IMG/VR virus record: IMGVR_UViG_3300037067_013617
Span: 27,943-91,942 of that record
Direction: 5' to 3' (one strand)
From: a virus
Lineage: Duplodnaviria; Caudoviricetes
Length of the DNA: 64,000 bases
Shown piece by piece: positions 32,700-61,611 of this stretch; the first letter of the stretch is position 1; each line of letters starts with the position of its first letter. Made by a program: the position numbers and the translations under genes. The notes under the pieces were generated by a model, which was not told the DNA's origin, did not search any database, and worked only from the letters and a program-made list of their open reading frames with translations.

Positions 32700-32727
32700 T
32701 TACGACATAACCCCCCTTTTGTCGTAG
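32700..32727. repeat. dif-like 11-6-11 site A (spacer CCCCCC)
   Basis: TTACGACATAA CCCCCC TTTTGTCGTAG. Confidence 0.8.
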
Positions 32728-32732
32728 TTAAA

Positions 32733-32924
32733 TTATGCATCTAATTCTAATGGCTTATGATCTTTTTGTTCGTGATGAAAGACTTGTCCTAAATCACGCA
32801 TATCAACTGATTGCCCGCACGCTTTACAAATATAATAATTTTCTATTTCGGGGACATCTATTTTATTCCCATTTTCATCCACCGGATGCCCGGTTATTCC
32901 TGTCGCAATGTTATTTGTTTTCAT
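32733..32924 (-). CDS. 63-aa Zn-finger-like protein, duplicated at 48283
   Basis: CxxC...HH; 55/63 identical to 48283..48474. Confidence 0.75.
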   Translation of the reverse strand: MKTNNIATGITGHPVDENGNKIDVPEIENYYICKACGQSVDMRDLGQVFHHEQKDHKPLELDA

Positions 32925-32936
32925 CTTTGCTTTCTT

Positions 32937-32953
32937 CCCCCCTTTTGTCGTAG
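32937..32953. repeat. Partial dif-like site B (spacer CCCCCC plus right arm)
   Basis: CCCCCC TTTTGTCGTAG abutting a TAG stop. Confidence 0.7.
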
Positions 32954-35900
32954 CTATTTAAATGGTAAAATAGCAAATTCTTTCATAATTTTTCTTCGTT
33001 CCAAGGCTTCATTAATTTTCTTTTCAATAATTTTATCAATTTTCTCATCCAGGATTTTATCTTCTATTTGAGGAATACCAACCTGATTTTTGCCTGCGGC
33101 CTTTTCAAATACCCGAACGTGATCTACATCTGTCTGTTCAGTTAATGCTTTTAATTTTTTTAAGAAAATCATTTTTATCATCAACTGATATTTCTAGTCC
33201 TAAATTTCCATCTTTATAAACTGCTTGCATAAATATTTTTCCTTTTCTATATTTGTCGTAGCTATATAATCGATAAAGCATGTATTAAATCTTTTTGAGA
33301 TTCAAAAACTTTTCCTTCCCTACGAATATGTCGTAGCTATTTTTCCCTTAAAAATAATAACTTAAATTTTTCTTTAAAAGATAAGCTATCAATATATTGG
33401 ATCAATAATTCTTTTGAGAAATTATAATTATTTAATTGAATTGAATTTTGTAATTTTTCTTGTAATTTATTAGAAAGCTCTTTTTGATTTTTTAAGATTT
33501 CTAATACAAAATTCATTAAATATGACACACTTGCTTTATCATCCCCACCGGTTGCACAAATATCCCGTAAACCATGGAATAGGCGATGAAGAAATGGATC
33601 GACATAAAACAATTCCTTCCATTCTTTTGTTCTAAAAATTATTTTATTTAATTCTTGAAATATTATATATGGCATTATTTTTTTCCTTTTCTCTCTGTCA
33701 ACAGACCGCATTGACAGTAATATTAAAACATAAATTTTTATTTTTCCCTTGCTTCCAGCATGGCATCGGCGATGAGATAAGCGTATTTTGTAACGTCATT
33801 TATATTAATTGCTTTGAAAGATGTATTTGGCATTCTGCCTCCATAGATTCCCTGCATAGCTGCCGCCGCGAAATAATCCCGCTTAGTTATCCCTTCCTGT
33901 CCATCTTCTGCAAAATCAAAATCATTATCGACAGTCTGCTGCCCCATCTGTTTCAGCGATTGAACCGGAAACGCCGATCCGCCGTTTTTTTTGTTAGCCA
34001 TAATTTTATTTCTCCTTTATTTTCTATTCCGTTAAAATATTATTTCCCTTAAAATCGAAATGTAAAAGTTTTTCGATTTTAGGAGTTATTTCGATCAATC
34101 CCCGCTCTAATCCTTCAAATCCATCCTCGGCGCTGTTTACTGTTTTTAATTGCCGGGTAATTTCCTGTTGCTTGGTAAATAATTCCGTTTTAAGAATATT
34201 AGCATAATCCATTGCTTTTGGAATAAAATTTTTATATTTCAACCATGCCGATTGAGCATCAGCTACATATTGATTTGCTTCAACAACTCTTTGCTTCCAT
34301 TGTGATATTTCTTCATCGCATTTATCTTTTACTTTTTTAATTTCATTTTTAGTTTTTTTCTCTGCCGCTTCCTTTTGCATTTCGATTGCATCTGCGTATC
34401 TGGCTCGCTGTTCGTCCAATTGCTTCATCCAGTATTTTTCATCTTCGATGCGCTGTTTCGATCTCGCTTCGATCTCTATTTGCTTTTCGGACTTGCTCTT
34501 TAGGAAATTAAACATCAGCCCTCCTTTATACCCATTTTCTTACTGTGCATCTTGCATAATCTTTATTATCCCTTCTGAAAAAAGAATCCTGTGAATTAAA
34601 AGAAAGATCGGGTTCCCAATCCGGCGTTAAATGCTGTAAACAATATTCTTTTGCTTTTTCATAACAAACTTTATCTTGATCTTTGTAGTTAATATTTTCA
34701 GGTATTTCAAATTCAATTTTATCCCATTCCATTTTTTTGCCAATTCTATCTAATCCATAAATCTCCATATCGCAATGGATATTAGATCGCCGGGATAATA
34801 ATTGACAGGTTTGTTTTTCATCAAAATGAATATCTAAAAATTTTATGGATGCATTATCGTCCCTAATTTCTAAATGTAATCCTTCCGCATTAAATAATAA
34901 AGTAGCTTCTCCTTTAATAATGTTCATATTATTCATTTCCTTTTGTATAATTTAATAATTTAGGCATTTTTCCTGAAGCAGCTATTTGCTTTAAATCGGG
35001 AATAAGATGGGATCCCAATGTTTGTCCATCCGGCATTATTACTTTCATGCCGAATTCTTCCTCAAAGGTTGAAATTCCATCATTTATAAATTCAAGTTTA
35101 GCCTTGACGCCGATAACCATTGCCCGCCATCTCTGCCGGATAGCCTGCTCATACGTAGCTTGTGCCTGATTTTGTTTTCTATTTCGTCCCATATCTGTTT
35201 TAAGAAATTCTTCTTTTTTAGGCAATGGGACATCGTATTGGATCGATAAATTATTATATTCGAACATTAAATATAATTTATCTTCGTCTTCCATCGTACC
35301 AAATCTTTTTGCGCCATAATTCCGAAGTATTTTTTGGATTTCTGCTTGTGATCTTTCGATGGAAACGCTGGTATTTTGTGCATATTTAGCCATTGTTGTC
35401 ATCTTCTCCCTTTCTCTCGACTTTTTTTTCTTCCTGTTCCATCGGCAGTTTACATTTTTTGCAAGTTACGGTCTGAGGCAAACTACCGATATCGTATTCG
35501 AACTTAATCACTCCCCCGCATTTCTTACACTTAAAAGTCTCTGTTTTGAATTTCATTCTTTGATCTTTACGAAAAATGAAGCGTCCATGTCTTTTATCGG
35601 GGTACCGCGCATTCCGCAGACATCACAAAATTCACCCTCATTCGCGGATATAAGATATTTACTCCGGGTAAATTTAGACTCGGTAACACAGGTTACTTTT
35701 CGGATAATTTTACTTTCTTTCGGCAGAAGATTACTTCTAACCAAATCTCCTACTGCAAAAATTTCATGTGTAACGGAATTTGGTTTTATAATCTTATTCT
35801 TTTCTTTTCTCTTGTTTCTGCCGAGTATTTGAAACGCCAATTTAATTCGTAGACCATAGAGCCAGCTATGCACGGCTCCTAAAAAATCATTGATTAAAGC

Positions 35901-36177
35901 ATTCCGGCTTTTTCTTATCGCACGACGTAACCGTTTAACATTTTTACCGCTCATGTTTTATCCTCGTTATTGTAATTGTTGTTGCAATGATGCAATTTTC
36001 TCCCATGTCCGGGAATAATCAAAAAGATGAATAGCAGGGAGTTGACCTATTCTTTTGGGATCCACATTGCTAAATTTTTCTGATTTATTCAGCAGATACA
36101 TCAGCTCGTGTTTAATTTTAATTGATTTTCGTTTAGATATTGCCATAAAATTTCTCCTGAAAATTTTATTTTATTTG

Positions 36178-36405
36178 TTATTTGATAATATTTCTATCGA
36201 TAATCTCTTTGCATATTTTTTTAAGCTGAGATATTTTTTGCCGTGACAAAGCATTAGTAATATAAACTTCTCCCTTGCTTAATGCCCGCGAAAGCGCCCG
36301 ATATCCCTTTGTCTCTTTTGCTGCTTTTTCGATAATATCAACATAGAATTTGACATCATCTTTTTCCCGCTGCATTTTGTCTTGAAAATCTTTTTGAAGT
36401 GTCAT
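36178..36405 (-). CDS. Possible Cro-like HTH regulator
   Basis: GYRALSRALSKGEVYITNALSR; first gene after promoter copy 3. Confidence 0.4.
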   Translation of the reverse strand: MTLQKDFQDKMQREKDDVKFYVDIIEKAAKETKGYRALSRALSKGEVYITNALSRQKISQLKKICKEIIDRNIIK

Positions 36406-36438
36406 TCTGTATAGAACTCCTTTTTTAATATAATTTAG

Positions 36439-36472
36439 ACATTAATATAATGCTCTAAATACGTCAAGCATT
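36439..36472 (-). promoter_or_regulatory. Sigma70-type promoter with overlapping palindrome (copy 3)
   Basis: TTGACG-17-TAATGT; perfect AATGCT-N12-AGCATT. Confidence 0.65.
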
Positions 36473-36487
36473 TTATTTAAAAAAAAT

Positions 36488-38677
36488 TCATATCGCCACA
36501 AAAACTTTGTGTGCATATATTCCTTTACCGACGAGTCTTTCTTCTATTTGTTTTGACTGCTGTAATGTCTCCAATACGTCATTTCTAATATGTCCCGGCA
36601 AATTCTGTGTCTTCCTTGATATTTCCGACAACGCGATATATCCTGATTCCTGTATCAGCCGAAGTATTCTTTTCACTTCGTGTTCGTAATCATTCTTTGC
36701 CATATAATTTTCAACAATATATTGCATATTATCTGACAAATATTTTGATAATTTAATAGAATAAAGCATTTCCTCCCTGGTAATAACCGGATTATCTACG
36801 TTATTGCCTATACTGAGTATTAAAGCGATTTGTTCGGCCAATTGCGCCGACCGGTTATAAGTCGATTCTGCTTTACCTTTTTCTCTTAATTCATTTCTAA
36901 AATTAAATAAATGTTCATCGAATTCAATGATTAAATTATGCGCGTCTTCATCCATTTCAACTACTAACGGTTTCGGATTCAATGCTCCGTCTACGTCGCC
37001 ATCAGGACTATGATTTATCGGCTTTCTCTTGAGCGCTTTTATCTGGCTGACTAATTCCGCACTTGGTTTTTTTAGAAATTTTTTATTGCGTTGTTTTCTG
37101 ACAATATTTTCATCAGTCTCAAATATAAGCATACGCGATAAAAATCCATCCGTTGCGGCTTCATAATTTAATCCTTTATAAAGAGTATCCGGGACGGTAC
37201 TGCCGAGCAGACATAGATTCGGCTGGATAATCTTGACTCTTTTATCCTCGCTGGCATAGATTTTTCCATAATATATCTGATCCGCAGACGAGTATAATTT
37301 TAATAATACCGAGACAACATTAAATAAATGTGTAGCGCCTTTTTTAGTTGTTTCAAGAAAACGGCCGACTTCATCCAATAAAAATAATTGCGATTCCGCG
37401 GTCGTAAGCGCCGTTACAATAGCGGAGTCACTCGCAATATCCTCGACACAGGCCATGTTCCCACAACCGGATTCTTCGAATAAATCCTTGACCGCTTTTC
37501 TTGGCGCTTCTTTCCCTGAGCCGGACCCGCCTATGTTCAGGCAATAGATATTCGTGCGAATGCCGGTCGAAGTCTGATATTTACGTCCGGCCAGTGTCCC
37601 CACCGCGCATAATGCAGCTGATAACGCGAAAATAGGCTGAGGAATAATTGCCCGATCCATGATAAAATCGATAATATTACCGACAATGCCTCCCGTTTTA
37701 AGTAAATCCGATGGAAAAGGTTCCTTCTTAAAGACGGCCTTCATTTTAGTTAAAGTTTCAATATCAGGCAAAGTGGGAAGAACAATTATCTGCTTGTCGT
37801 TTTTTTCCTCTTTTTTGTTATATTTATGCTCATAAGTTGTTATCCAACCTGCCCGCTGCGCCTCATGGAATAAACTCGCAATAGTAATATCAGCAGGTTT
37901 CAGTCCGTTCCAGCGGTTTTCCATATCGTCCGGTTTATATTTATCACTGGTTTTGGACCATTCGTTCCAGAGGCCATAAGCTGAAGGTGAATTTGTGCTT
38001 TTCAGCGCCATGCCTATCCGTACCCATGTATCACGGTCGTCGCTGCTGAGATATGCCAGGGCAGAACGTATTTCCCTGATTTCCTCTTCCGGTAATATAT
38101 TCGTTAATGTTTCTTCAGATGCGTTGGATTTTATCTTAGTAAAATTAACAATCCATTCCGGAAGGGGAGCGCATCGTCCTTTAATATTGTCAATTCCGAG
38201 ATCGTCAACGTCATCATAAACGATATATTTATTATTATCTACGGTGACGCAATATCCGCCATCGCCGCGGATATCCACCGGTAAAAACTTATCAATAAAT
38301 CTGGTTTTTGATCGAATTTCGGCATTTTCCGGCAGCAAATAATAGAAGTGCCGGCCGCCGCTGGGAGTTTGTACTTGGAAGGTGTCTGGCAATTCACCGT
38401 GGTTTTCTTTTACTTCCTCTATTAGTTCATCAACGGATCTGGTATCAATATCTTCAGTTCCGGGAATTTTTTTGTTTACATCAAAATCTATGACAACTAT
38501 TTCGTTTTTTTTTCCAGTAGGCAATCCTATCAATAATTCCGGCTTAAAAAATTGCTTTTTTATGGTCTCAAAATCATTGACGGCATCGTAAAAGCCTCTT
38601 TTAGTAAGCGGAGTCTTATCCAGCCAGCATGGGAAAATATAAAAACCTTGATCTGTATATTTTTGAAGGCAATCCAT
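36488..38677 (-). CDS. Bifunctional primase-polymerase with PriCT-2 and C-terminal P-loop (DUF3987-like) domain
   Basis: IGLPTG...VIDFD, TPSGGRHFY, DIRGDGGY; DRDTWVRIGMAL..W..WS; GSGSGKE, LLDE. Confidence 0.9.
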   Translation of the reverse strand: MDCLQKYTDQGFYIFPCWLDKTPLTKRGFYDAVNDFETIKKQFFKPELLIGLPTGKKNEIVVIDFDVNKKIPGTEDIDTRSVDELIEEVKENHGELPDTFQVQTPSGGRHFYYLLPENAEIRSKTRFIDKFLPVDIRGDGGYCVTVDNNKYIVYDDVDDLGIDNIKGRCAPLPEWIVNFTKIKSNASEETLTNILPEEEIREIRSALAYLSSDDRDTWVRIGMALKSTNSPSAYGLWNEWSKTSDKYKPDDMENRWNGLKPADITIASLFHEAQRAGWITTYEHKYNKKEEKNDKQIIVLPTLPDIETLTKMKAVFKKEPFPSDLLKTGGIVGNIIDFIMDRAIIPQPIFALSAALCAVGTLAGRKYQTSTGIRTNIYCLNIGGSGSGKEAPRKAVKDLFEESGCGNMACVEDIASDSAIVTALTTAESQLFLLDEVGRFLETTKKGATHLFNVVSVLLKLYSSADQIYYGKIYASEDKRVKIIQPNLCLLGSTVPDTLYKGLNYEAATDGFLSRMLIFETDENIVRKQRNKKFLKKPSAELVSQIKALKRKPINHSPDGDVDGALNPKPLVVEMDEDAHNLIIEFDEHLFNFRNELREKGKAESTYNRSAQLAEQIALILSIGNNVDNPVITREEMLYSIKLSKYLSDNMQYIVENYMAKNDYEHEVKRILRLIQESGYIALSEISRKTQNLPGHIRNDVLETLQQSKQIEERLVGKGIYAHKVFVAI

Positions 38678-40407: not shown

Positions 40408-40435
40408 TTACGACATAAGGTCTCTTTTGTGGTAG
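40408..40435. repeat. dif-like site E (spacer GGTCTC)
   Basis: TTACGACATAA GGTCTC TTTTGTGGTAG abutting the methyltransferase stop. Confidence 0.8.
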
Positions 40436-41019: not shown

Positions 41020-41919
41020 TTAAATTTTAATCATTGCATCATCAACATTTAATTCAGTATCAATATAAAATGAAAGGGTAGTCGAGATCGAAGCGTGACC
41101 CAAAAATTTTGATACAGCATGAATATCTTTTTTTTCAACCGATATTTTATAGGTTGCAAACCAGTGTCTCAACAAATGCGGATGCACGATCTTTCCCGCT
41201 TTCCTTTCAAAAATATTATGTATTTCCATCCATAGATTTTTTCTGTCGTATTTTTTCCCGGCATTATTGTAGAACAAATACGGAATATCTTTAACTTCAG
41301 GAAATACTTTGCGTATATCAGATAGAAGGATATTGGATACATAAATCTTCCTCTCCTTTTTCCCTTTTCCGATAATTTTAATAATATAATTTTTATCATC
41401 GAATACACTAATATCTGAATTTTTAATATTTATGCACTCGGAAATTCTCATACCCGTTGCGGCCAGCACGCGGACAAAGATAATAATTTTTTTTTCTTTA
41501 GCCATTGTATCCGGCATTATCTTTGTTACTTTTTTAATGTCTTCAATGGTAAGGGCAATATTTATTCCTTTTGATGTCTTAAATGAAATTCGTCTAACTT
41601 GCTTCAGCGCATCTACCGGATTCTGTTTAATCTCTCCGGCTATCATCATTATTTTAAACATTTTTGATAGGCTAGCTGCTTTGCGGTTAATCGAATTATT
41701 CTTATAATTATTTTTTTCAAGATGTTGGATATATGCTAGTATGTCCGAAGCCGTTATATCTTTAGGATTTTTTTTGATAAAATCAAAAAATAATTTATAA
41801 TCCGCGGTATAACTGCGCTGTGTCTCTATTGATAAAGATCTCCATGCCGTATCTTTGAGCTGCATCATCCGGCTATTTTTATCAATAATCGCTAATTCTT
41901 TTCCGGTACTTTTGGGCAT
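41020..41919 (-). CDS. Xer-like tyrosine recombinase
   Basis: N-terminal core-binding domain, TGMRISE (R), GKGKKER (K), HPHLLRH (HxxR), LGH, TTLSFY (Y); about 300 aa with no arm-binding domain. Confidence 0.92.
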   Translation of the reverse strand: MPKSTGKELAIIDKNSRMMQLKDTAWRSLSIETQRSYTADYKLFFDFIKKNPKDITASDILAYIQHLEKNNYKNNSINRKAASLSKMFKIMMIAGEIKQNPVDALKQVRRISFKTSKGINIALTIEDIKKVTKIMPDTMAKEKKIIIFVRVLAATGMRISECINIKNSDISVFDDKNYIIKIIGKGKKERKIYVSNILLSDIRKVFPEVKDIPYLFYNNAGKKYDRKNLWMEIHNIFERKAGKIVHPHLLRHWFATYKISVEKKDIHAVSKFLGHASISTTLSFYIDTELNVDDAMIKI

Positions 41920-41928
41920 AATGTTCCT

Positions 41929-43653
41929 TTACAGTATATTCATTAATTGTTCATCTATTCTAGCTTCTTCTTCTTTTGAAATTTCGTCAATTCTATTTTT
42001 ATATTCAGTATCATTTTCCAGAACATAACCGACAATAGTTGGAAATTTTCCGTTGGCATCAACTATGATCTGTTTCGTTTTTTTAAAATATATTTGATTT
42101 TTTAAAGCATCTTCAATCGTTTCTATCTGCATATTTGTCCGAGTTCGCAGCCATTTCGTTGCTTTTTTCTTGGCATATCCGTCATGGAGAATGCATATCC
42201 ATTCACTGAAATCACTGCCGTAAAATCCTATCCCGCAATCGTAATCTACTTTCAAACTGTCCGGTTTTCCTGCTTTCTGATGACGCGAATAAGACACGTC
42301 CTCGACATCATAAGGCTTTGGTTTCTGCCATTCCGAAAGGATTGCTGCCGTACTCGCTTCGTCATCATGTGAGGGATTGCTCGGAAATTCATATCCGCAG
42401 GTCGGGCAGGTTCGAGTAGATAAGGCAACCAAGGCCTGACATTCAGGACATTCTTTTTGCGGGGTACCTTTTGTAACTTCATTTCCTTTTCCATTTTTTT
42501 TCTTTCTTATTTCAATAGCATCAAGTTTCCCATGATATAAAATATTGCCACCATAATCTAAGATCAAACAATTTTTTTTATCTGAATGCATTCTTAGACC
42601 GCGTCCTAATACTTGAACATAGAGACCAGGACTTTTAGTTGCGAATAATAAACAAATACAATCTATTGCTTTTTCATTGAAACCTTCTGTCAAAATACCT
42701 ATATTAATTAGAGCTTTTATTTGTCCATTTTTAAAATTTTTAATATTTTGTTCATTTATTTTTTTATCTTGTTTTGAATGAATAACTTTTGCAGATATTC
42801 CTATATTATTCATCTCTTTCTCTATTTCTATCGCATGATTAATGCCAGCAGCAAAAACTAATATTTTTTTTCTATCTTGAGTTAATATTTTTATTTCTGA
42901 AACGGCTCTCGCAACTAATCCTTGAACGCGGAAAGCTTCCTCCATCTCTCCCTGTATATATTCTCCTCCGCGTGTATGGACATTGGATAAATCAGCCTGT
43001 GCTTGTATCGTACCATTTTTAGAAATTAATTCACATAGATATTGTTTGTGATCTCTATTTTTGAAATGATTTGGATTTATAAGTTCAGGGATATTAACAG
43101 AATAAATTATATCATGGAAAATAGCATTTTTCCCTTCACAAATTAGTCCTGTTTTCATTCGATAGCATGTCGCACTTAATCCAATAATTAATAAATTTGG
43201 ATTTATTTTCAACAATTCATTAATAAATTTTCTATATATACCCATTTGTTCGCTATCTACTCGATGTACTTCGTCTATAATAAGACAATCTTGCCAGCCA
43301 GCAATTTCATAAGCACGTTTATAAATAGATTGAATACTCGCAAACATTATTCTTTGTCCTGAATTTCTTAGACCTAATCCGGCAGAATATATACCTATAT
43401 TAGAAAATAATCCATTATTATCTAACAAATCTGTTAATTCGATATAATTTTGTTTGAGTAATTCAGCCCTATGTGCAAGCAACAATACCCGTGTATGATC
43501 CCATTCTAATAACCATTTTACGATTAATGCTTGTATATAAGATTTCCCGCTTCCTGTACACATAGAAATTAAAGGATGTTTGCCTGGATTATTAATTATA
43601 TATGTTTTTAAGGCTTCCATTGCATCAATTTGATAATAACGTGGCGTAATCAT
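41929..43653 (-). CDS. SF2 helicase (RadD/YejH-like) with Zn finger
   Basis: TGSGKS, DEVH, SAT, Q..GRGLR, CPEC..CPTC. Confidence 0.9.
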   Translation of the reverse strand: MITPRYYQIDAMEALKTYIINNPGKHPLISMCTGSGKSYIQALIVKWLLEWDHTRVLLLAHRAELLKQNYIELTDLLDNNGLFSNIGIYSAGLGLRNSGQRIMFASIQSIYKRAYEIAGWQDCLIIDEVHRVDSEQMGIYRKFINELLKINPNLLIIGLSATCYRMKTGLICEGKNAIFHDIIYSVNIPELINPNHFKNRDHKQYLCELISKNGTIQAQADLSNVHTRGGEYIQGEMEEAFRVQGLVARAVSEIKILTQDRKKILVFAAGINHAIEIEKEMNNIGISAKVIHSKQDKKINEQNIKNFKNGQIKALINIGILTEGFNEKAIDCICLLFATKSPGLYVQVLGRGLRMHSDKKNCLILDYGGNILYHGKLDAIEIRKKKNGKGNEVTKGTPQKECPECQALVALSTRTCPTCGYEFPSNPSHDDEASTAAILSEWQKPKPYDVEDVSYSRHQKAGKPDSLKVDYDCGIGFYGSDFSEWICILHDGYAKKKATKWLRTRTNMQIETIEDALKNQIYFKKTKQIIVDANGKFPTIVGYVLENDTEYKNRIDEISKEEEARIDEQLMNIL

Positions 43654-44837: not shown

Positions 44838-45989
44838 TTATATATCCTTCAGCCCGCTTTTTTCCCATGCTTTTCGCGGGATGTCTTTTTCATCAACAAT
44901 TTCTCCCTGGAATGCTTGCTGCGTTTTGACTATTCCGCGAGTTAGATTATTGACTGATTTAATTTTATTGAATAAGTAATCACTGGGGAAAATCGCGTCA
45001 AGTTCGCCCTTTAATTCGGGAAGGCCGGTTGAATAAACATTTGCAAATTTATATCCTGCGTCTGTTTGATAAATGCATCCATCTTCCTGCTGTTCGATTA
45101 ACTTTGCCTGAATAAGTGCAGGATTATAAACATGGTATTGACAGCCTTTCATTAAAAAATCATCTGTGATATCAATTTCTTTTTTTAAGCATTTACGAAT
45201 GCCGCCATTGATCGGCTCTGAGTACCGGCAGGTCTTACAATTCACTAACGGAAAGTCTCCGTCGTGGCATACTTTCTGGAACGCGCAAAATTTGCATTTA
45301 TAAAATTCGCGTTTATCAGAAAGACGTGCAGGGATGGTCCAGTTATCAAAAATAATTATTTTTGCTTTTTCGATTATGCCTTCAGCGTATTTTTTATCGT
45401 AATCGGTACGGCAAGATGTATGTCCTCTCCCGCCTGGAAGCGATGCAACTAAATAATGTCTTTCCAATTGGAAGGCGTGCATATAAATTTGAGCTTGCGA
45501 AAAATAAATAATATCAAAATTTCGCAATGCTCCTTTTTCTCCTTTTTCTTGAATTGATTTATTTAATTCATTAAATCTTTTTTCATTTATAGCCTTGTGT
45601 TCAAAAATATGATATGTCTTAGGAGATTGAAGAAGCCCTTTGATAATTCCATCGACGTGCCCTCGAAAATGAGAAAGGAGTAGTTCAAAACCGAGCTGAT
45701 TACCATTTCCATCATCATTATGCAACTCAATATTTTTTAATGCTCTCAGCCTTTTTATAGTAGTTTCTTCCTGTTGATAACCATCTTGAATAGCTTTAAT
45801 TCCTGATATTGAAATTATTCTTTTTGCTACACCGCGAAAAGAATAAAAAAGTTTACGGTAACATTCGTCACCGATTTCCGATGCACCTAAATAATGTCTT
45901 GATTGTTCTAAAGTTTGTTCATATTCAAGTTGTTTATTCATTGCTTCCAAAGTTGGATCGGAATAAATATTTAAATTTAATTCAGCCAT
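44838..45989 (-). CDS. Cas4-like PD-(D/E)XK exonuclease
   Basis: LGAS.IG.EC.R, GHVDG, EHK, Q..YM, CKFC..C; start moved to MAELNL with GGAG RBS. Confidence 0.85.
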   Translation of the reverse strand: MAELNLNIYSDPTLEAMNKQLEYEQTLEQSRHYLGASEIGDECYRKLFYSFRGVAKRIISISGIKAIQDGYQQEETTIKRLRALKNIELHNDDGNGNQLGFELLLSHFRGHVDGIIKGLLQSPKTYHIFEHKAINEKRFNELNKSIQEKGEKGALRNFDIIYFSQAQIYMHAFQLERHYLVASLPGGRGHTSCRTDYDKKYAEGIIEKAKIIIFDNWTIPARLSDKREFYKCKFCAFQKVCHDGDFPLVNCKTCRYSEPINGGIRKCLKKEIDITDDFLMKGCQYHVYNPALIQAKLIEQQEDGCIYQTDAGYKFANVYSTGLPELKGELDAIFPSDYLFNKIKSVNNLTRGIVKTQQAFQGEIVDEKDIPRKAWEKSGLKDI

Positions 45990-46920
45990 TGTTATTTTCT
46001 CCTGTAATTTTTTTATTAGCATATTTCCATTTAAAACCACCGGCTTCATTACGTTTGTTATTACAACATCGAGAAATATCAGCACTACTAATTTTTAATT
46101 TTTTTTCAACAATTCTTAATCCGTTCCATTTTTTTATTATTTTATTAGTGTGAATGTTAATTTGATAAACATCTATTCTTTTTAACCACCTTTTGTCTTT
46201 TCTGATTTTAAAAGGATTGTAATTATTCACGAATGCCCATCTAAAACCACCTACTGTTATAATTTTTTTCCTACATGCTTTAGAAATAGATGATGCATCT
46301 ATTTTTAGTATTTTTTGTATATTTATTTGACTTTCCCATTTTTTTATAATTTTATTAGTTTTTTTATCAATTTGATAAATTGCTTTTGATTGTGGATTTT
46401 TTTCTCCATGTAATCCATATCGAGGATGATTTTCTCCATGATGTCCTCTTTTCGCATTTGGAATACCTATCTGAGCTTTTCTTATCTTTTTTTTATGCTC
46501 TAAAGATAATTTTTTTCCTCTAAAAAAATTTGCCATTTTTTCTATCTGTTCAATTGATTTTTTTTTACCTTTTAAAGCATCACTTAATTTTTTTCTTGTT
46601 TCTTTAGACCGTTTTATCCCTAATGGACTATTAACAATTTGATGTAAATTATATAACTCTTTTTTAAATTTATACGCATTGACCATTCTCTGTTCATAAA
46701 AAAATAAATTTTCCTTGTTGCAATATAATAGAATTTCAAATTTAAAATTTAATTCGCCATGTTTGTTGTAAGCTCTTTGTAAATAAGAATTATAATGTTT
46801 CTTGTTTTTTAAATCAAAAAAATGTTGATTTTGTCTTCTTTTTAAATCAATAGCACTCCCGATATATCTTTTCCCATTGATTCGATTAATAATTTGATAA
46901 ATGCCAGTATTGTATTCCAT
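45982..46920 (-). CDS. GIY-YIG homing endonuclease (NUMOD3, two NUMOD1)
   Basis: NTGIYQI..KRYIGSA; two GGF.W repeats. Confidence 0.9.
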   Translation of the reverse strand: MEYNTGIYQIINRINGKRYIGSAIDLKRRQNQHFFDLKNKKHYNSYLQRAYNKHGELNFKFEILLYCNKENLFFYEQRMVNAYKFKKELYNLHQIVNSPLGIKRSKETRKKLSDALKGKKKSIEQIEKMANFFRGKKLSLEHKKKIRKAQIGIPNAKRGHHGENHPRYGLHGEKNPQSKAIYQIDKKTNKIIKKWESQINIQKILKIDASSISKACRKKIITVGGFRWAFVNNYNPFKIRKDKRWLKRIDVYQINIHTNKIIKKWNGLRIVEKKLKISSADISRCCNNKRNEAGGFKWKYANKKITGENNNG

Positions 46921-47971: not shown

Positions 47972-47999
47972 TTACGACATAAGCGGACTTTTGTCGTAA
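47972..47999. repeat. dif-like site F (spacer GCGGAC)
   Basis: TTACGACATAA GCGGAC TTTTGTCGTAA abutting the stop at 48000. Confidence 0.8.
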
Positions 48000-48282: not shown

Positions 48283-48474
48283 TTACGCATCTAATTCCAA
48301 AGGCTCATGCTCTTCTTGTTCGTGATGAAATAATTCTCCCAAATCGCGCATATCGACTGACTGCCCGCAGATTTTACAAGTATAATAATTCTCTATCTCT
48401 GGAATATCTATTTTATTTCCATTCTCGTCTACCGGGTGGCCGGTGATCCCTGTTGCAATATTATTTGTTTTCAT
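48283..48474 (-). CDS. 63-aa Zn-finger-like protein, paralog of 32733
   Basis: 55/63 identical residues. Confidence 0.75.
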   Translation of the reverse strand: MKTNNIATGITGHPVDENGNKIDIPEIENYYTCKICGQSVDMRDLGELFHHEQEEHEPLELDA

Positions 48475-52615: not shown

Positions 52616-52993
52616 TTAAAGACATAACTGTTCTTTTGTCGTTGCTAATAATTTTATTATTTTACCCGTTTCACAGATAACTAATTCTTTTATCCCGTAT
52701 TTTTTCATAATTTCAATGCAATTATTACACGCATAAGAATGACCAATCAGATATAGAGTTCCTCCATGAGCTCTTCCTCTAGCATGATTACAAGCGTCTA
52801 CTTCTGCATGATTTACTTGCTTACATATATCCTTACATTTTTCATAGCCTTCGCCGGTTTTCATCCCTTCTCTTGGGCAAACTTTAATTTCTTTGTTCCG
52901 GATGCTATTATTTCCAATATCAATAAATTTACCATCCTTCATTATTACTGCTATCGTAGTTTGTTTTAAGCATTGTGGCATATTCAACTCCAC
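52616..52993 (-). CDS. dCMP/cytidine deaminase-family protein
   Basis: HAE..A, C..C, CPR. Confidence 0.8.
   Translation of the reverse strand: MELNMPQCLKQTTIAVIMKDGKFIDIGNNSIRNKEIKVCPREGMKTGEGYEKCKDICKQVNHAEVDACNHARGRAHGGTLYLIGHSYACNNCIEIMKKYGIKELVICETGKIIKLLATTKEQLCL
52617..52644. repeat. dif-like site J (spacer CTGTTC) inside the deaminase 3' end
   Basis: TAAAGACATAA CTGTTC TTTTGTCGTTG. Confidence 0.7.
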
Positions 52994-53532
52994 TGCTCGG
53001 CCATAGCAGCAGCAATTCCGGAATAAAATATTGACCTTAATTTTCCACGCTCAGGAGACGGTGACATCTTCCATATTCTTTGTTCTCTGCCATCAACTAT
53101 ATTTGTCGGTTTAAGCAAAGGTAAATTTTTCAACCAGAGGCAAGTTTTTTTAGTTTCTCCGTGTCCATATTGCCAAGGCTGAATATATTGATCTGGTTTC
53201 CTATATTTCGTTGACATTATCCCTACTGGATTTTCAATTGCAATTTTTGGAATATTTGCATTTACTAATTGCATAAAAAATGCAATTGCCTGTTTCTGTT
53301 GTTCTTGTTTATAAATAAAATGTTTTGCGCCACATACTGCAATATCTGTACAAGGAGGATGTGCAATCATCATATCCCAACAATCATCGTCTAAATAATA
53401 TAAAACATCGTCTTGGATATGTTGCCCTGGAATTTCGGTAGGCGATAAATCACATGACCAAGCATTGTGTCCTCTAGCTTTAAATGCCTCGCGGACTATT
53501 CCAGAAAATTCACAAGCAATTAAAATATTCAT
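52984..53532 (-). CDS. DNA C5-cytosine methyltransferase (short phage type)
   Basis: ACEFSG, HPPCT, IENP, K.TCLWL. Confidence 0.8.
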   Translation of the reverse strand: MNILIACEFSGIVREAFKARGHNAWSCDLSPTEIPGQHIQDDVLYYLDDDCWDMMIAHPPCTDIAVCGAKHFIYKQEQQKQAIAFFMQLVNANIPKIAIENPVGIMSTKYRKPDQYIQPWQYGHGETKKTCLWLKNLPLLKPTNIVDGREQRIWKMSPSPERGKLRSIFYSGIAAAMAEQWS

Positions 53533-53542: not shown

Positions 53543-53570
53543 TTACGACATAATGTCTGTTTTGTCGAAG
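53543..53570. repeat. dif-like site G (spacer TGTCTG)
   Basis: TTACGACATAA TGTCTG TTTTGTCGAAG, filling most of the intergenic gap. Confidence 0.8.
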
Positions 53571-54265: not shown

Positions 54266-54293
54266 CAACGACATAAGTCGCCTTTTGTGGTTG
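54266..54293. repeat. dif-like site H (spacer GTCGCC)
   Basis: CAACGACATAA GTCGCC TTTTGTGGTTG. Confidence 0.8.
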
Positions 54294-54475
54294 ATTTTCT
54301 TTTTTTTATTCCGTACTCAATAAATAGAGCATACGCAAATTCTTGTCAAGAAAAAAATAAAATTTTTTCCGTTTTTTTATTTTTCCCGTTTTTTTGCAAA
54401 ATTGTGTTGACAAAAATTATATTATTTATTTATGTCTCTTAATGTATTTAAAAATTTAAATAAGGAGGTGGATGA

Positions 54476-55241: not shown

Positions 55242-55952
55242 TTATTCTGCTTTATTTTTAAATAAAGCAGAATCTTTATATAATAAAATTTCTTCTACTG
55301 TAGCATATCGCCATTTATATCCTTTGATTGTTTTACGTCCATATTTATTCTTGCAACAAGCTGAAATATTACATCTATATGCTTTTACTGCATTTGCAGC
55401 ATTTTTTATGCAAATAAAAAAACTGATAACTTCATTAGTATTTTTATCTATTTGTAATACTGGTTTGATCCCAGGATGTTGCCATCCTGTCATTTTTCCT
55501 TTATGTGCAATACTTTGATTTTTTCTTCTTTGTAATGTGTGTTTTACTCCAATCATGGTTTTCTTTATTTTTTTGATAGTTTGCTTTGATGTCTTATGAC
55601 CTTTTTGTCTTTCACTTTTAGCTCTATTCGCTTCTTCGGAATGTTTTATCCCTAAAGTACTTCCTGCAATTCTACAAGTATTATATAATTTTGATTTAGA
55701 ATATGTATCAAGAAATTTTTGTTCATAATATAATAAATCTGTTATTTCGCAAAATAATATAATTTCAAATATAAAATTATGTTCTCCATACTTATTATAA
55801 GCATATTGCAATAAAATTCCATGATGTTTATTTTTTCTTAATAATCTGAAATGATCTTTTTTTCTTTTCGTTAAATCTTTAGAACTTCCGATATATCTTT
55901 TCCCGTTTATTTTATTTATTATTTGGTAAATGCCTGTATTATTATGTTTCAT
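55242..55952 (-). CDS. GIY-YIG homing endonuclease
   Basis: NTGIYQI..KRYIGSS, GYKWRY; antisense insertion. Confidence 0.9.
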   Translation of the reverse strand: MKHNNTGIYQIINKINGKRYIGSSKDLTKRKKDHFRLLRKNKHHGILLQYAYNKYGEHNFIFEIILFCEITDLLYYEQKFLDTYSKSKLYNTCRIAGSTLGIKHSEEANRAKSERQKGHKTSKQTIKKIKKTMIGVKHTLQRRKNQSIAHKGKMTGWQHPGIKPVLQIDKNTNEVISFFICIKNAANAVKAYRCNISACCKNKYGRKTIKGYKWRYATVEEILLYKDSALFKNKAE

Positions 55953-57104: not shown

Positions 57105-57138
57105 TTAAAAAATTAAAATACAAGGAGAAAAATAAAAT

Positions 57139-57669
57139 ATGGCAGAGTTAAATTATCAAGCCGATGTCAATGACACTAAAGAAAATCAATTTGATCCTGT
57201 CCCTGCGGCAATTTATACTGTAGTTGTAGAGGATAGTGATTATGCTGACAACAAAAATCAAACAGGCAGAATTCTCAAGATAACTTATCAAATAATAGAT
57301 GGCCCGATGAAAGGCAAAAAAATATTTGAAAATTTAAATCTTGAAAATGAAAGTGCACAGGCGGAACAAATTTCAAGGCGAGCTCTTAATGCATTATGTG
57401 TTGCCTGCGATGTAACTAATCTTAAGGATAGTGCGATGTTGCATAACATTCCATTAAAGATCGATGTCGGCATAAAACCGCCGGTAATGGCAAAAGATGC
57501 CGCGGGAAATGAATATGAGCAATATCCGATGGGAAATAAAATCAAAAAGCATTTGCCTTTAGATGATAAAAAATCCGTTGCAGCAAATACTACGGAAGAA
57601 AAATCTGCTCCAGCAACTCAATCAAAAGGAAAAGCAGCATCAGCAAAGAAGCATCCCTGGGAAAAGTAA
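57139..57669 (+). CDS. DUF669-type single-stranded DNA-binding protein
   Basis: FDPVPA..Y, G.KIFENLNL, C-terminal PW; follows Sak4. Confidence 0.8.
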   Translation: MAELNYQADVNDTKENQFDPVPAAIYTVVVEDSDYADNKNQTGRILKITYQIIDGPMKGKKIFENLNLENESAQAEQISRRALNALCVACDVTNLKDSAMLHNIPLKIDVGIKPPVMAKDAAGNEYEQYPMGNKIKKHLPLDDKKSVAANTTEEKSAPATQSKGKAASAKKHPWEK

Positions 57670-57692
57670 AAAATTTTTAAAATTTTAAATTT

Positions 57693-57726
57693 AAAAAAGC
57701 CACATTTATAATGTGGCTTTTATTTT
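57693..57726. terminator. Bidirectional intrinsic terminator
   Basis: AAAAAAGCCACATT-TAT-AATGTGGCTTTT between convergent genes. Confidence 0.75.
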
Positions 57727-58366
57727 ATGTTGATTTAATTTCTAAATAATAAGTAATACCGGCAGCAATAATTTTCCTTAAAATATTTTGTACCGTCCAG
57801 ATATCCACCGAAGCAGTATCATATAATGTTATTTTAATTGTGTAATAGGAACTGTCATAGCTCCCGGCCAGCGCGGGGACATATACAATAATTGTTCCAT
57901 CCGGCATAGTATAAGTACCGGCATCATATCGTCCGGCGAAGCAAAAACCGGCAAAAGCTGAGGATGTTAATACATTAGATATTTCAGGCTCAAGACTTGA
58001 ATAAGGCCGTAACCAATAAATGATTGCGGCGCGGGATACTTTCTGTTGGAATACGGTTGCGATAGTTCGCTGTACCCATTCCGCATCACTTTCGTCTTCG
58101 AATTGCAGACTATTAAAAAATTCATTAAGTTGATATTTTAAAAATTCGCTTGCGGCTTCATCGAGATATAATTGTTTAATTAAAGTAATAGAAAGCAATC
58201 GTAAATATTCAATCTGGCTGGCTATGGCACCGATATCAATATCAGTTGGTTTTGAGATAGTGCTGGGAATAGTTCCATTTCTATCGCAAATTAAACTTTT
58301 ATAGACGGGATCATCTATATTGAATAAAGTTTTAAGATTATTATTTATTTTATCTGTTATTGCCAT
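57725..58366 (-). CDS. Baseplate wedge protein (gpI-like candidate)
   Basis: Follows baseplate J; LYLDEA, ESD...R, AAGI motifs. Confidence 0.6.
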   Translation of the reverse strand: MAITDKINNNLKTLFNIDDPVYKSLICDRNGTIPSTISKPTDIDIGAIASQIEYLRLLSITLIKQLYLDEAASEFLKYQLNEFFNSLQFEDESDAEWVQRTIATVFQQKVSRAAIIYWLRPYSSLEPEISNVLTSSAFAGFCFAGRYDAGTYTMPDGTIIVYVPALAGSYDSSYYTIKITLYDTASVDIWTVQNILRKIIAAGITYYLEIKST

Positions 58367-58375
58367 ATTATTATT

Positions 58376-59803
58376 TTAGAAAGTTGATGTTACGGATACG
58401 GCTACCGTTACCGTACCACCTGTACCTGTGCCTGTTTTTGCAAATTCATTGTCACTGATAACAGTATCTATTGTTGGATTATTGACAATAACATTATAAA
58501 CAGCTGCATTTGAATCCATAGCCACCCTTATAATTTGAGATAAAAGAACATTCTCACCGAGTATTCTTGTATTGATATATTGTTCAATTGCGGTCTGTAC
58601 TGCTGTTTGAATTTCTGTCAGGTCTACATTTACATTCGATAATCTATAAACGGATATAGAAACATCTACAGGAACGATAGTTGGAGTATCAATGATATAG
58701 CCTATTCCTTCAGCATTCTTTCCAGGATAATTATAAAAATCATTAGGATCTCCATATAATACTTTTGTAATTTCAGCTAATAATGTTGCCGATAACGAGC
58801 CCGACCCTGAACCGTCATCGATAATAATTGTATTCGTGCCCTTAAAAGGATATGATGTCCGCATCCCTGCGCTTCGGATGCCGGATATGGCACGCAGAGC
58901 ATTTAAAATCCCTTCTTTTGTCCCGGCATTTAATGAATTAACGGTATCCGCAAATCTTGTCTTTCTCGCTGCGTTTGTTTCTTCAGCCGCGCCGCCGCTA
59001 AAAGCCGAATCATTTATAACTTGTTCTATGCCGTCAATTGTTGAATTAATAAATCCTTTTCCGTTTAATGTATCGATGGCTTCAGCAGCTATATTCCCGA
59101 TAATTCCGGCCAACGCCGGTTCTGCCGCAATGGTAACGCTGGATTGTCCTGCTTCTAATGTCCCGTCGGCTGTTGTTAAAATGGATAATTGATTGATAGT
59201 AATGGAATATCCGGTTGGAATAGATATTTCCGCGTCAGTTGCAAATAATATATCTAATCCATCGACATTTAAATAATTTACTATTCCGATAACTTCTTCC
59301 GCAGTATATTGATACAAAGTATTAGACGCAATCGATCCGTCTTTAACCAATGTCGCTTCCCAATTCGTTAAAGCGTCAATAGCTGTTGCCAGATCATCAA
59401 GAGTCGGATATGAAGCATAATCAAAATCAAAAGCATCCGATGGCGCACCCGTAACTGATGCCGTAAAATTTGTAGAATTTGATGTAACTAAAGCGCTTGT
59501 TCCTGCACCTGTATAATTTATAATTATTGCCGGCTTCCGGTATAACCGTAAATATCCGGCTGATTTTAATGCTTCTGTCCTTCCGAATCCAAATCCTTCA
59601 TACAAAGCTACCGGAATAGATTTATATAATGCCTCTTTGAAATCTGAAGCGATGCTAGCAATAATTTCAGAATTAGATTCAAGTAATGCCCGTTGAGGAC
59701 TACCCTCGTTAAAATCAGTAAGTCCAATTCCATCAGCTAATATTGCTTTTTCATACATTGTATATAATTGATCGGCGGTATAAACTTTTAATATATCAGC
59801 CAT
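58376..59803 (-). CDS. Baseplate J-like protein
   Basis: TDFNEGS..RALLE, G..GNIAA..I, GGAAEET...R, GT..GI, LGE. Confidence 0.85.
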   Translation of the reverse strand: MADILKVYTADQLYTMYEKAILADGIGLTDFNEGSPQRALLESNSEIIASIASDFKEALYKSIPVALYEGFGFGRTEALKSAGYLRLYRKPAIIINYTGAGTSALVTSNSTNFTASVTGAPSDAFDFDYASYPTLDDLATAIDALTNWEATLVKDGSIASNTLYQYTAEEVIGIVNYLNVDGLDILFATDAEISIPTGYSITINQLSILTTADGTLEAGQSSVTIAAEPALAGIIGNIAAEAIDTLNGKGFINSTIDGIEQVINDSAFSGGAAEETNAARKTRFADTVNSLNAGTKEGILNALRAISGIRSAGMRTSYPFKGTNTIIIDDGSGSGSLSATLLAEITKVLYGDPNDFYNYPGKNAEGIGYIIDTPTIVPVDVSISVYRLSNVNVDLTEIQTAVQTAIEQYINTRILGENVLLSQIIRVAMDSNAAVYNVIVNNPTIDTVISDNEFAKTGTGTGGTVTVAVSVTSTF

Positions 59804-61578
59804 TATACTGTTACCTCTCTGGTCTGTTCAGAGTTGATAAAAAATATTTTAGTCGGAACGGATATGGATTCACCGTCCCACACTAATTTTTTTAAATCCA
59901 TTTTAGCGGACTCAACTCTTGGATCTGATTGAATTTGATTCAGCATATCCGTTAAGTATCTATCAATTTTAACCAGCATTGGTGTATTGCTGTCATCAAG
60001 CGCGAATGTTCCCCAATTCGGATTAAAAACATTGAGCGATCCTTTTTTATTTTTAATTCTATTCTCAACAGCTTTAAATGCATTCTCTATCCCAGTACAA
60101 ATTTTTAGCTTGCCCGATGCAAGTAATAATTCATTATTCAATCCAAAAGCAAATCCTGATCCGAATACAAATTTTTCGGGATCGCTGTAATCTGTTTCAT
60201 AAACCAGATTATCATCACCGCGGGCAGTTGTACCAATCGGAAAAGGAATTTTTATTTTTTGTCCGATAAGTGTTCCATCGATAAAATCATTTTCCGATAT
60301 GCCGTTAAATTTTAAAATTTGAATATACTTTTCTTGATCCTTTAATTCTTTCAATGCGATGCTTCTTAAAGTATCACCTTCCATCACTTCATAATAATAA
60401 AAATTTGTAGTATTCTCGGTACGGCCAGCATCAGGCGAAGTGAACTGCTCCTCCGTTAATGTATAATCATCAGCATCAGAATAATATTTTAATTCATTGA
60501 TAATAACTGTTGACTTGATAATACCGTTTAAAATATTAGCCTGTAATTTTATTTTTTTGATAGTATTATAAAAAGTTAATAAATCAATATTAACGACTTC
60601 ATCAATAGTTAAATCTCCGTTGTCATAATCTGTGCGCTGACCAATAGACAGGAAAGTAGTAATAAAATTAGAAGATGCCAGATCAAGACTGGTCAATAAA
60701 TCATTAACATAAATCGGCATATTTACGCTTAACGTAGATTTCCCTGCTTGTATATTTTCATTCTCAGCAGATATTTTAGTTAATAGATCAGTAATATTTA
60801 CAATCGTATTCAGGAAAGAATAATTATATCCTATTTCTCCCTGGATGTCATTAAATACTGTTTCAAAAGGTATCTGTTGAATTTGCGTATTTGTTCTGTC
60901 AAGACTTTCATTTACTGACGGCTTGACTTTTAATTCAGAATTTCTTTGAATAGTATCCGGCTCATAACATTCAATTTCAATGGTATAATCAATCGCAAGA
61001 TGTTTTGTATCGGATTGATTACTGGTAAAGCTGGCAATTCTTGAAAAGAAATGATCGTTCATGTCGTAGTCATGGAATATCAATCGAATCTCATCCATCA
61101 ATGCGCCGGTTTTATTTTTTATCTTTGATGCTACTTTTTTATATAATTGTGCTATTTCCGGAATTTGCATTAAATCGGTAGGCGTATCGACGCGAGCCTT
61201 AGACATCATCGTGTAGTCACGAAACCGGATAAGCATCCATCTCAGTTTAAAAAATTCTTCCAGGCCCGAAAGAGTATTTTGCAGACCGGTATTGTCACGG
61301 GCGACGGGGTTGTCCGGGCTGCCGATATAAGGAAAATAAAGACATCCGTTCAGAGTAATTGATTTTGTCGCGTTTCCGCCGTCTATGTTATAATTTCCGC
61401 CGAGTGTTGGAACGGTTGCGGAACGAGTTGATTCCGATACGGTTTTTCCTTTCGGAGGAGTTAAAAAGAATATTTCAGCTATCGTATTACGGTTTTTATT
61501 TACGAATTCGAACGAATATAATCCTGTAAATATAAAGGTGCCTTTATATAAATGCTGTATAAGTGTGGGTAAGTTCAT
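59803..61578 (-). CDS. Baseplate protein with LysM and C-terminal gp25-like domain
   Basis: YEVMEGDTLRSIA...IL..N..IGQKIKIP; G.L..FNPNWG...DPRVES. Confidence 0.75.
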   Translation of the reverse strand: MNLPTLIQHLYKGTFIFTGLYSFEFVNKNRNTIAEIFFLTPPKGKTVSESTRSATVPTLGGNYNIDGGNATKSITLNGCLYFPYIGSPDNPVARDNTGLQNTLSGLEEFFKLRWMLIRFRDYTMMSKARVDTPTDLMQIPEIAQLYKKVASKIKNKTGALMDEIRLIFHDYDMNDHFFSRIASFTSNQSDTKHLAIDYTIEIECYEPDTIQRNSELKVKPSVNESLDRTNTQIQQIPFETVFNDIQGEIGYNYSFLNTIVNITDLLTKISAENENIQAGKSTLSVNMPIYVNDLLTSLDLASSNFITTFLSIGQRTDYDNGDLTIDEVVNIDLLTFYNTIKKIKLQANILNGIIKSTVIINELKYYSDADDYTLTEEQFTSPDAGRTENTTNFYYYEVMEGDTLRSIALKELKDQEKYIQILKFNGISENDFIDGTLIGQKIKIPFPIGTTARGDDNLVYETDYSDPEKFVFGSGFAFGLNNELLLASGKLKICTGIENAFKAVENRIKNKKGSLNVFNPNWGTFALDDSNTPMLVKIDRYLTDMLNQIQSDPRVESAKMDLKKLVWDGESISVPTKIFFINSEQTREVTV

Positions 61579-61583
61579 CGGCC

Positions 61584-61611
61584 TTACGACATAATTCCTC
61601 TTTTGTGGTAA
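61584..61611. repeat. dif-like site I (spacer TTCCTC)
   Basis: TTACGACATAA TTCCTC TTTTGTGGTAA, 5 bp from the baseplate gene start. Confidence 0.8.

Follow-up and report, generated by a model that had tools for sequence, protein, structure and literature searches.

Dispersed 28-bp dif-like sites and a phage-encoded Xer-like recombinase in a family of tailed phages

Why should a tailed phage carry, scattered along its genome and mostly at the ends of genes, several copies of an element built like the dif sites of Xer recombinases? The question arises from a 64-kb stretch of viral DNA (hereafter the window), bases 27943–91942 of the 91,942-bp IMG/VR virus record IMGVR_UViG_3300037067_013617, which we call G000. 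The window holds seven 28-bp elements, each composed of two 11-nt arms around a 6-nt spacer, and an intact gene for an Xer-like tyrosine recombinase (41020–41919, minus strand). Judging from sequence, we put at about even chances that these elements are double-stranded core sites of the phage's own Xer-type recombinase. Control of transcription by a protein bound to the same sites is the main rival explanation.

The sites in G000

The original prediction for this locus had placed seven co-oriented full sites in the window. A pattern search recovers every one of them, all in one orientation and with 0–3 mismatches to the consensus proposed at that time; none is expected by chance (0 in 100 dinucleotide shuffles). 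Read on the minus strand, as they are throughout this text, the sites of G000 have the consensus YWAC[G/C]ACAAAA-N6-TTATGTCGTWR, and the short form of the site is [T/C][G/C]ACAAAA-GRNNNV-TTATGT[C/A][A/G]. Searching the whole record adds an eighth full site outside the window, at genome positions 19130–19157, which lies in frame within a large head-module gene. In a position-weight scan of G000 the eight sites score 26–33 bits and the background at most 16 bits with nothing between, so the set of sites is a discrete one.

Where do the sites lie? Four are internal to operons, with the left arm 0–5 nt from a stop codon. The site at 32700–32727 (CTACGACAAAA-GGGGGG-TTATGTCGTAA) stands 5 nt past the stop of a small open reading frame (ORF), ORF63, and 27 nt ahead of the next ATG. 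The one at 40408–40435 (spacer GAGACC), 585 bp downstream of the recombinase gene, adjoins the TAG codon that ends a Dam-like methyltransferase ORF; that at 47972–47999 (spacer GTCCGC), the best palindrome of the window, abuts a TAA stop 22 nt before the next ATG; and that at 53543–53570 (spacer CAGACA) is found 4 nt past a stop and 10 nt before a methyltransferase gene (52984–53532). A further site, 52617–52644 (spacer GAACAG), overlaps the final codons of a deaminase-like ORF (52616–52993). The remaining two are in divergent intergenic regions. Site 54266–54293 (spacer GGCGAC) marks the border between a conserved AAA_24 operon and accessory genes, coincides with the minimum of the cumulative GC skew, and starts 27 nt downstream of a promoter-like element, TTGACA-17-TATTTA (54321–54349). 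Site 61584–61611 (spacer GAGGAA) starts 28 nt downstream of a second such element, TTGACA-16-TAATAT (61640–61667), and ends 5 nt ahead of the ATG of a LysM/baseplate operon. After these sites, the next start codon follows by 5–54 nt.

The distances to genes had been described correctly in the original prediction, with most sites next to the upstream stop and/or the next start, and so had the finer structure: the spacer is always 6 bp (the sequences were listed for the plus strand), the CATAA/CAAAA asymmetry of the arms is fixed at every site, a C·C mismatch (arm position 5, minus strand) recurs at 40408, 54266 and 61584, and the outer bases at 54266 do covary (CAAC/GTTG). The three partial sites are also present, and all are copies of the left arm only. 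At 32937–32953 the left arm is followed by a GGGGGG spacer identical to that of site 32700, and the right arm is absent; 33251–33261 is a solitary left-arm copy (CTACGACAAAT) with ATAG just before it; and 33320–33336 is a left-arm-derived short hairpin, CTACGA-CATAT-TCGTAG, abutting the TAG stop of a 124-aa ORF (33337–33711). All three are on the minus strand. Just downstream of the solitary copy, two overlapping ORFs (47 and 76 aa; 32954–33281) resemble one small gene split by a frameshift.

The recombinase

The product of 41020–41919 is 299 amino acids long and consists of an N-terminal SAM-like core-binding domain and a catalytic domain. PF00589, PF02899 and PF13495 all match above their cut-offs and an arm-binding domain is absent, which bears out the earlier description of an intact Xer-type enzyme of about 300 residues. 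Among protein families and structures it is closest to XerA, XerC and XerD and to the PDB entries 4A8E, 5HXY and 1A0P. The catalytic residues align to the motifs ATGxRxSE, GKGxKER, HxLRH and LGH of XerD and XerA, and six of them (R158, K185, H248, R251, H275 and Y285) are invariant in 56 homologues. This invariant hexad argues that catalysis, beyond binding, is under selection.

How is the enzyme related to the cellular Xer proteins? Within a collection of 5.8 billion proteins, about 67 homologues share 42–77% identity with it, after which identity drops, with nothing between, to about 31% for bacterial XerC; on these identities the recombinase is a distinct, phage-specific clade. No homologue above 33% identity is found in 185,579 bacterial and archaeal species genomes, so these genomes give no sign of a prophage state, a host or an attB site; neither they nor the window show any sign of lysogeny. 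In relatives with readable context, the recombinase gene belongs to a replication module, near a Pif1 helicase and a Prim-Pol/DUF3987 primase. An SF2 helicase gene directly precedes it in most records, and a few small genes intervene in one.

The sites follow the recombinase among relatives

We scanned 17 records carrying the recombinase clade for the core ACAAAA-N6-TTATGT. There are five core sites in G001, seven in G029, two each in G039, in L034 and in the one phage represented by G034, G035 and G036, and a single one each in G037, G028, G033, G038 and L036; one-mismatch variants occur in L035, G030, G028 and G037. In total, 581 kb of non-redundant recombinase-bearing sequence contains 30 strict sites, compared with 0.44 expected from base composition. 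An exact-motif scan of IMG/VR finds the 28-bp site of G000 nowhere beyond its own record.

More distant phages look different. In 25 of them, found via a conserved 493-aa protein (mostly 36–43% identity; two fragments at 65–73%), there is no strict site and one-mismatch hits occur at control level only. The recombinase was sought in ten of these 25: nine have no match, and G007 has a weak partial one (E-value 2e-7, 31% identity) to part of the catalytic domain. From this distribution, the site family appears to track the recombinase clade.

The two are also often close together. In most records checked, at least one site lies within 0–7 kb of the recombinase gene. In G037, which is complete and terminally repeated, the sole strict site is antisense inside the recombinase gene itself, and two near-consensus sites are present as well. 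In G029 and L034, short ORFs and sites form an array next to the gene. Past its site downstream of the primase, a contig of the G034 type (L253) has an antisense block (17028–19562) with genes for three pentapeptide-repeat proteins and one Imm5-like protein.

Site anatomy across the family

The following description is based on 31 distinct sites, in which arm positions 6–11 and 18–23 were fixed by the search pattern. All 31 are 11-6-11 sites, the architecture of dif that had been proposed for them. The inner arms, ACAAAA and TTATGT, have very few intermediate variants in the position-weight scan, though they are pattern-fixed. Next to them, position 5 is G or C, and position 24 is C or A (G once). 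The spacer starts with G in 26 of the 31 sites, has a purine as its second base in 30, and never ends in T; its G+C content is about 66% (a hand count on an earlier subset of 15 sites), against 26–43% for the genomes.

The outer arms covary. Positions 4 and 25 form a Watson-Crick pair in 24 of the 31 sites, with three types of pair (T:A, C:G and A:T; permutation p < 1e-4), and covariation extends to 2:27 (p = 0.001) and 3:26 (p = 0.005). Position 4 is uniform inside each genome and differs across genomes (C:G in G000, T:A in G001), a pattern that fits a protein whose specificity drifts with its sites and not a set of independent hairpins. Positions 1–3 often coincide with the final sense codon of the ORF upstream, which at several sites of G001 and G029 has the TGA of TGACAAAA as its stop codon. 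Because the outer positions are so often coding sequence, the functional half-site is probably about 8 bp.

At five sites the ATG in the right arm opens a frame of at least 45 codons, and two of the five are inside large ORFs. At G029 2445, G029 25714 and G035 17587 (the same as L253 6491) the frame has 67–104 codons, so that a gene may begin with codons supplied by the site. Elsewhere the right-arm ATG mostly runs straight into TAA or TCG-TAA.

Here we give an example of a site inside a coding region. The eighth site of G000 (19130–19157; L001) has counterparts in G001 (29052–29079; L024) and G037 (21163–21190; L149), in each case in frame within a head-module gene that is “cargo” or tape-measure-like. 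The gene's reading frame includes the ATG of the right arm (ACG in G037), and a sense codon takes the place of the usual TAA. In the three genomes this site is a conserved nucleotide island within proteins whose surrounding sequences cannot be aligned.

How the sites may work

If the recombinase acts on these elements, each of the two inverted arms would be bound by one monomer, which would read the inner 7–8 bp ([T/C][G/C]ACA[A/T]AA), and the 6 bp between them would be the crossover region. Polarity would come from the fixed A/T difference between the arms together with the G-purine start of the spacer. Since each site has its own spacer, strand exchange by a classical tyrosine recombinase would be confined to a site and its counterpart in a second copy of the genome. 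Reasoning from how the enzyme family is known to work, we infer that such crossovers between sister or co-infecting genomes would make or resolve head-to-tail multimers in replication and packaging, and that they would exchange flanking DNA reciprocally between relatives sharing a site. The sites may also have spread together with accessory genes; the copy number of 1–8, the placement between a stop codon and a ribosome-binding site, and the arrays downstream of the recombinase gene are compatible with this.

Several points weigh against recombination at the sites. The conserved tyrosine, Y285, is one residue farther from LGH than in XerD, and is therefore a putative nucleophile. The scores against the NCBIfam models of the family are below all cut-offs (XerA, 137.5 bits against 220; XerC, 135.6 against 335; XerD, 132.4 against 330), and on this evidence the recombinase is Xer-like and not an equivalog of XerA, XerC or XerD. 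Many other genes are likewise common to all the relatives, and co-occurrence does not single out the recombinase as the protein that binds. The advantage of having up to eight sites is unexplained, and two sites lie 27–28 nt downstream of promoter-like elements. Finally, we find no rearrangement or variant at any site in 15 near-identical contigs: five contigs from other samples that cover sites 52617, 53543 and 54266 are 99.95–100% identical to the window and collinear with it, and ten contigs of the G034-type phage, again from other samples, are 100% identical and collinear. Neither a recombinant junction nor a circle or a deletion was observed.

The main rival explanation is that the elements are operator or roadblock sites, at which the Xer-fold protein or another phage protein binds and controls downstream transcription with no recombination, much as cluster-A mycobacteriophage repressors do at stoperators. 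There is a precedent in MrpR of SPbeta, which places a tyrosine-recombinase fold on repeats in about ten intergenic or promoter regions (PMC10516654). Together with the two promoter-proximal sites, which are in the leaders of two operons, this precedent makes regulation instead of recombination a possibility to be taken seriously. Two further observations agree with it: 20 of the 22 sites in multi-site genomes are co-directional with transcription and just upstream of genes, and the 15 contigs are undisturbed at the sites. On the other side, MrpR has lost the catalytic residues, all six of which are invariant in the phage enzymes; no promoter is consistently found beside the sites; some sites are inside ORFs (antisense in the recombinase gene, and in the head gene) and seven oppose transcription; and both the architecture and the inner-arm sequence are those of a crossover site. 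We regard regulation as possible, with a modest probability.

Could the element instead act as a folded hairpin, whether of RNA or of single-stranded DNA? As an intercistronic or 5'-leader stem-loop, possibly with an ATG-TCG-TAA or ATG-TAA mini-ORF, it would serve RNA processing, the stability of mRNA or the control of translation. The outer covariation at 4:25 and 2:27 is what a stem would produce; the sites of multi-site genomes are mostly intergenic and on the coding strand, spacers are purine-rich, and the ATG frames described above would suit a leader. The stem itself is poorly kept. With both strands folded, predicted energies lie between −1.3 and −9.7 kcal/mol, and for about 5 of 13 sites, three of the five in G001 among them, shuffled sequences fold just as stably. 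In mid-stem, 5:24 pairs in 17 of the 31 sites and is mismatched in 14, and the A·A mismatch is fixed; the closing pairs are invariant while the loop varies; positions 1–3 are often accounted for by the upstream codon; and no Rfam family matches the element. Sequence is thus kept where pairing is not, and 7 of about 31 sites are antisense to local transcription; together these points argue for a double-stranded site bound by protein. That no stable hairpin is kept from site to site speaks for double-stranded DNA, in agreement with the original prediction that protein half-sites fit better than an RNA stem. We consider the hairpin very unlikely.

Slightly less probable still is that the elements are replication signals, such as origin or priming sites for the Prim-Pol/D5-type primase-helicase or another strand-specific motif: the recombinase and several sites are in the replication module, the primase gene of G034 and G028 has a site downstream at a distance of 47–210 nt, a site in G000 and in G039 falls on the strand switch and the lowest point of the cumulative GC skew, and the sites of multi-site genomes have a common orientation, but GC skew mainly follows gene orientation and so confounds origin mapping, eight dispersed origins are unlikely, the 11-6-11 dyad with its Xer-type inner arms is left unexplained, and the primase is tied to the sites no more than any other shared gene.

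Some further candidates were tried and rejected. A sigma-70 promoter within the site (xxGACA as −35, TAA... as −10) has only two or three conserved bases of the −10 element and does not explain the invariant TTATGT; promoter scans do not rise above background, and the sequence upstream of the sites yields no consistent promoter. An intrinsic terminator is rejected for the absence of a T tract, with only the mini-hairpin at 33320 being picked up. As a translation-initiation cassette or mini-ORF (ATG-TCG-TAA or ATG-TAA), the element has a spacing of 2–4 nt to the ATG, about half of the spacers viewed are not Shine-Dalgarno-like, and the dyad is unexplained. A resemblance to the Spo0A box or DnaA box (TGTCGTA, CCACA) does not hold, as relatives replace the CG.

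Gene exchange at the sites

Do genes move at these sites? The original prediction saw a gene-cassette shuffling system, in which the sites delimit accessory modules and distinct spacers serve as addresses. The part concerning spacers is not supported. Eight random hexamers are expected to differ, so the distinctness of the spacers carries no information and no statistical weight, and the argument from it to selection is rejected. It had also been proposed to test whether orthologous slots keep the same spacer; the spacers differ in all three sets compared: downstream of the recombinase gene at matching positions (GAGACC, TGAGCG, GAGAGA, CAGGTA and GGACGG), in the head-module gene (CAAGCG, GAGAAA and GCGCAG), and in the divergent region (GGCGAC, GAAGGG and GGTGAC, the last one inverted).

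The placement of the sites gives partial agreement with the idea of module borders. Among the seven intergenic sites of G000, five have unique genes on both sides, two are exactly at borders between a conserved operon and unique genes, and none is between two conserved genes. The bias toward accessory regions is a trend only (p = 0.076).

A few traces of movement can be found. ORF63 (32733–32924) is flanked by a 17-bp direct repeat composed of the left arm and the GGGGGG spacer, which resembles the footprint of an integration; among the 17 records it is the only partial-site footprint, and GGGGGG is the sole spacer repeated in any genome. A paralogue of ORF63 (48283–48474) has 83% nucleotide identity to it exactly from ATG to TAA, mostly with third-position differences and with unrelated flanks. 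Because the identity is confined to the ORF, the boundaries of this duplication are uninformative. Both copies have 63 codons and a CxxC...HH-like motif.

Other examples come from comparing relatives. G029-15569 and L034-2080 are two sites with the same spacer (GACGCC) and the same right arm, and their likeness extends about 8 nt past that arm, while neither the left arms nor the flanking genes on either side are related. In both G000 and G001 a PAPS-reductase module comes after a site, but its position in the genome differs between the two. In G001 a 3.8-kb block ending in a site parts the recombinase gene from a 291-aa gene that is directly adjacent to it in G029; in G034 a 286-aa gene after the recombinase is the counterpart of the 291-aa gene by position and size only. 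The head-module site, conserved amid protein sequence that does not align, also speaks for exchange.

Cassette shuffling is thus favored by the ORF63 footprint, by one conserved site with swapped flanks, by the PAPS-reductase module and, weakly, by the bias toward accessory regions, and disfavored by the 15 contigs without variants. On balance, we regard gene exchange at the sites as plausible though rather improbable. Contigs of the G000 type (L249, L251) and a phage of the G037 type (G037, L037) come from the same samples (3300029288 and ERZ27247363), so two site-bearing relatives could meet in one host. It is tempting to hypothesize that these apparently lytic phages of 70–92 kb maintain a catalytically active Xer-type recombinase with spacer-addressed sites, through which co-infecting relatives would exchange accessory genes slot by slot, and protein domains via the in-frame head-gene site, and by which genome copies would be linked for packaging. 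We hold this fuller scheme to be doubtful; if true, phages would have in it their own equivalent of pdif modules or integrons.

The genome and neighboring genes

G000 has 33.8% GC, is rated 100% complete by CheckV and has no terminal repeats called; about 88% of its coding sequence is on the minus strand. Megablast against the 50,697 deposited phage genomes of INPHARED finds no nucleotide-level relative. The genes that place its recombinase in a replication module are both on the minus strand: a Prim-Pol/PriCT_2/DUF3987 primase-helicase (36488–38677), which has matches at about 25% identity only, and an SF2 helicase (ResIII/Helicase_C; 41929–43653) directly upstream of the recombinase gene, a neighbor kept in the relatives examined. 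In some relatives the SF2 helicase beside the recombinase contains an intein (L035 6393–9989, with an HNH domain; L037 5120–7636; and the P0034 contig); the G000 helicase (574 aa) has none.

Two genes of the window are GIY-YIG homing-endonuclease-like (45982–46920 and 55242–55952), and one of them also has a NUMOD3 domain. The one at 55242–55952 is on the opposite strand within the AAA_24/DUF669 operon. Perfect 12–13-bp hairpins with T tracts on both strands (57695–57721 and 55244–55273) resemble bidirectional terminators at convergent gene ends. In the G034-type phage, G034 (1–400) and G035 (24770–25091) have tandem repeats of about 80% identity at a spacing of about 130 bp; the repeats are at contig ends, and outside them the contigs are pieces of a single phage with 100% identity.

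Comparison with known systems

In the literature, we found no description of a tailed phage with its own replication-module Xer-type recombinase plus several dispersed dif-like sites. If the recombinase acts on the sites, the phages have a dedicated Xer-type system in the replication module with a variable number of targets, and this activity would provide a testable mechanism for accessory-gene swaps with precise junctions and for making or resolving multimers without host functions. If the protein binds only, it would be a second, independent genome-wide phage regulator with a recombinase fold, one that keeps its catalytic residues, unlike MrpR. The pair is compact (a 299-aa enzyme and a 22–28-bp site with a free 4-bp center) and might serve as an orthogonal recombination tool.

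The closest likeness is to Xer/dif, above all archaeal XerA/dif and the single-recombinase systems XerH and XerS. The TTATGT that starts the right arm also opens the XerD arm of dif in E. coli and B. subtilis. A dif site consists of two 11-nt inverted repeats about a 6-nt spacer, the ends of which are the cleavage points (PMC8371274), and the dif oligonucleotide of P. abyssi XerA is ATTGGATATAA-TCGGCC-TTATATCTAAA (PMC2958812). By our own count on the latter sequence, the phage consensus is identical to it at 14 of 22 arm positions, and both have a GC-rich spacer. The shared features are the 11-6-11 layout, inner arms of the form ..A(A/T)AA / TTAT(G/A)T, and an enzyme of about 300 amino acids with SAM-like core-binding and catalytic domains, no arm-binding domain and one protein for both arms. 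The phage system differs in being encoded by the phage within its replication module, in belonging to a clade of its own, and in having 1–8 sites per genome in place of a single copy at the replication terminus.

In pdif modules, sites used by XerC and XerD of the host flank accessory genes on Acinetobacter plasmids (PMC5790767, PMC7399989). The phages resemble them in being mobile replicons whose accessory genes are bordered by several 11-6-11 sites that differ in spacer. A pdif module has a C/D site at one border and a D/C site, in the opposite orientation, at the other, and it depends on XerCD of the host; in the phages, by contrast, sites of multi-site genomes are co-oriented, the single recombinase is self-encoded, and no module mobility is seen in the family.

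A simple tyrosine recombinase encoded by a phage together with its own dyad site, acting on genome copies in cyclization and dimer resolution, is known in Cre/loxP of P1. However, loxP is a single 13-8-13 site, whereas the phages described here have up to eight 11-6-11 sites, each with its own spacer. For a system of resolution or multimerization such as Cre/loxP or Xer/dif a single site suffices: G037 has one strict site, and G000 has eight.

Integrons, like the phages, have a recombinase related to Xer, and in both the imperfect inverted repeats are co-oriented and lie right at the upstream ORF's 3' end. The attC sites of integrons are of variable length and folded from one strand, in contrast to fixed 28-bp sites with conserved inner arms. 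No attI or Pc arrangement is found, and the integron-integrase model TIGR02249 scores the phage enzyme at 71 bits against a cut-off of 265.

MrpR (YopR), the master repressor of lysogeny in SPbeta, has the fold of a tyrosine recombinase but no longer functions as one; it acts on SPBRE in about ten intergenic regions (PMC10516654). The likeness is that of a tyrosine-recombinase-fold protein with a short repeat dispersed in the intergenic regions of its own phage. The difference is that MrpR is without catalytic residues and recognizes a 15-bp promoter motif, whereas the phage family has the invariant hexad and a 28-bp dyad. As to promoters, two of the eight G000 sites are downstream of promoter-like elements and the others have no consistent promoter. 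In the PeSL cassettes of T4-type phages, a promoter and stem-loop at junctions of small accessory genes have been proposed to permit modular shuffling (PMC2839356, PMC4122927). A short conserved motif repeated at such junctions is common to both, with those of PeSL being in hyperplastic regions. PeSL consists of an early promoter and a stable stem-loop terminator and recombines by homology, while the phage sites have no consistent promoter, a weak hairpin and a dedicated site-specific recombinase. Each of these systems (Xer/dif, pdif, Cre/loxP, integrons, MrpR/SPBRE and PeSL) shares some features with the phage elements, and none of them fits on its defining features.

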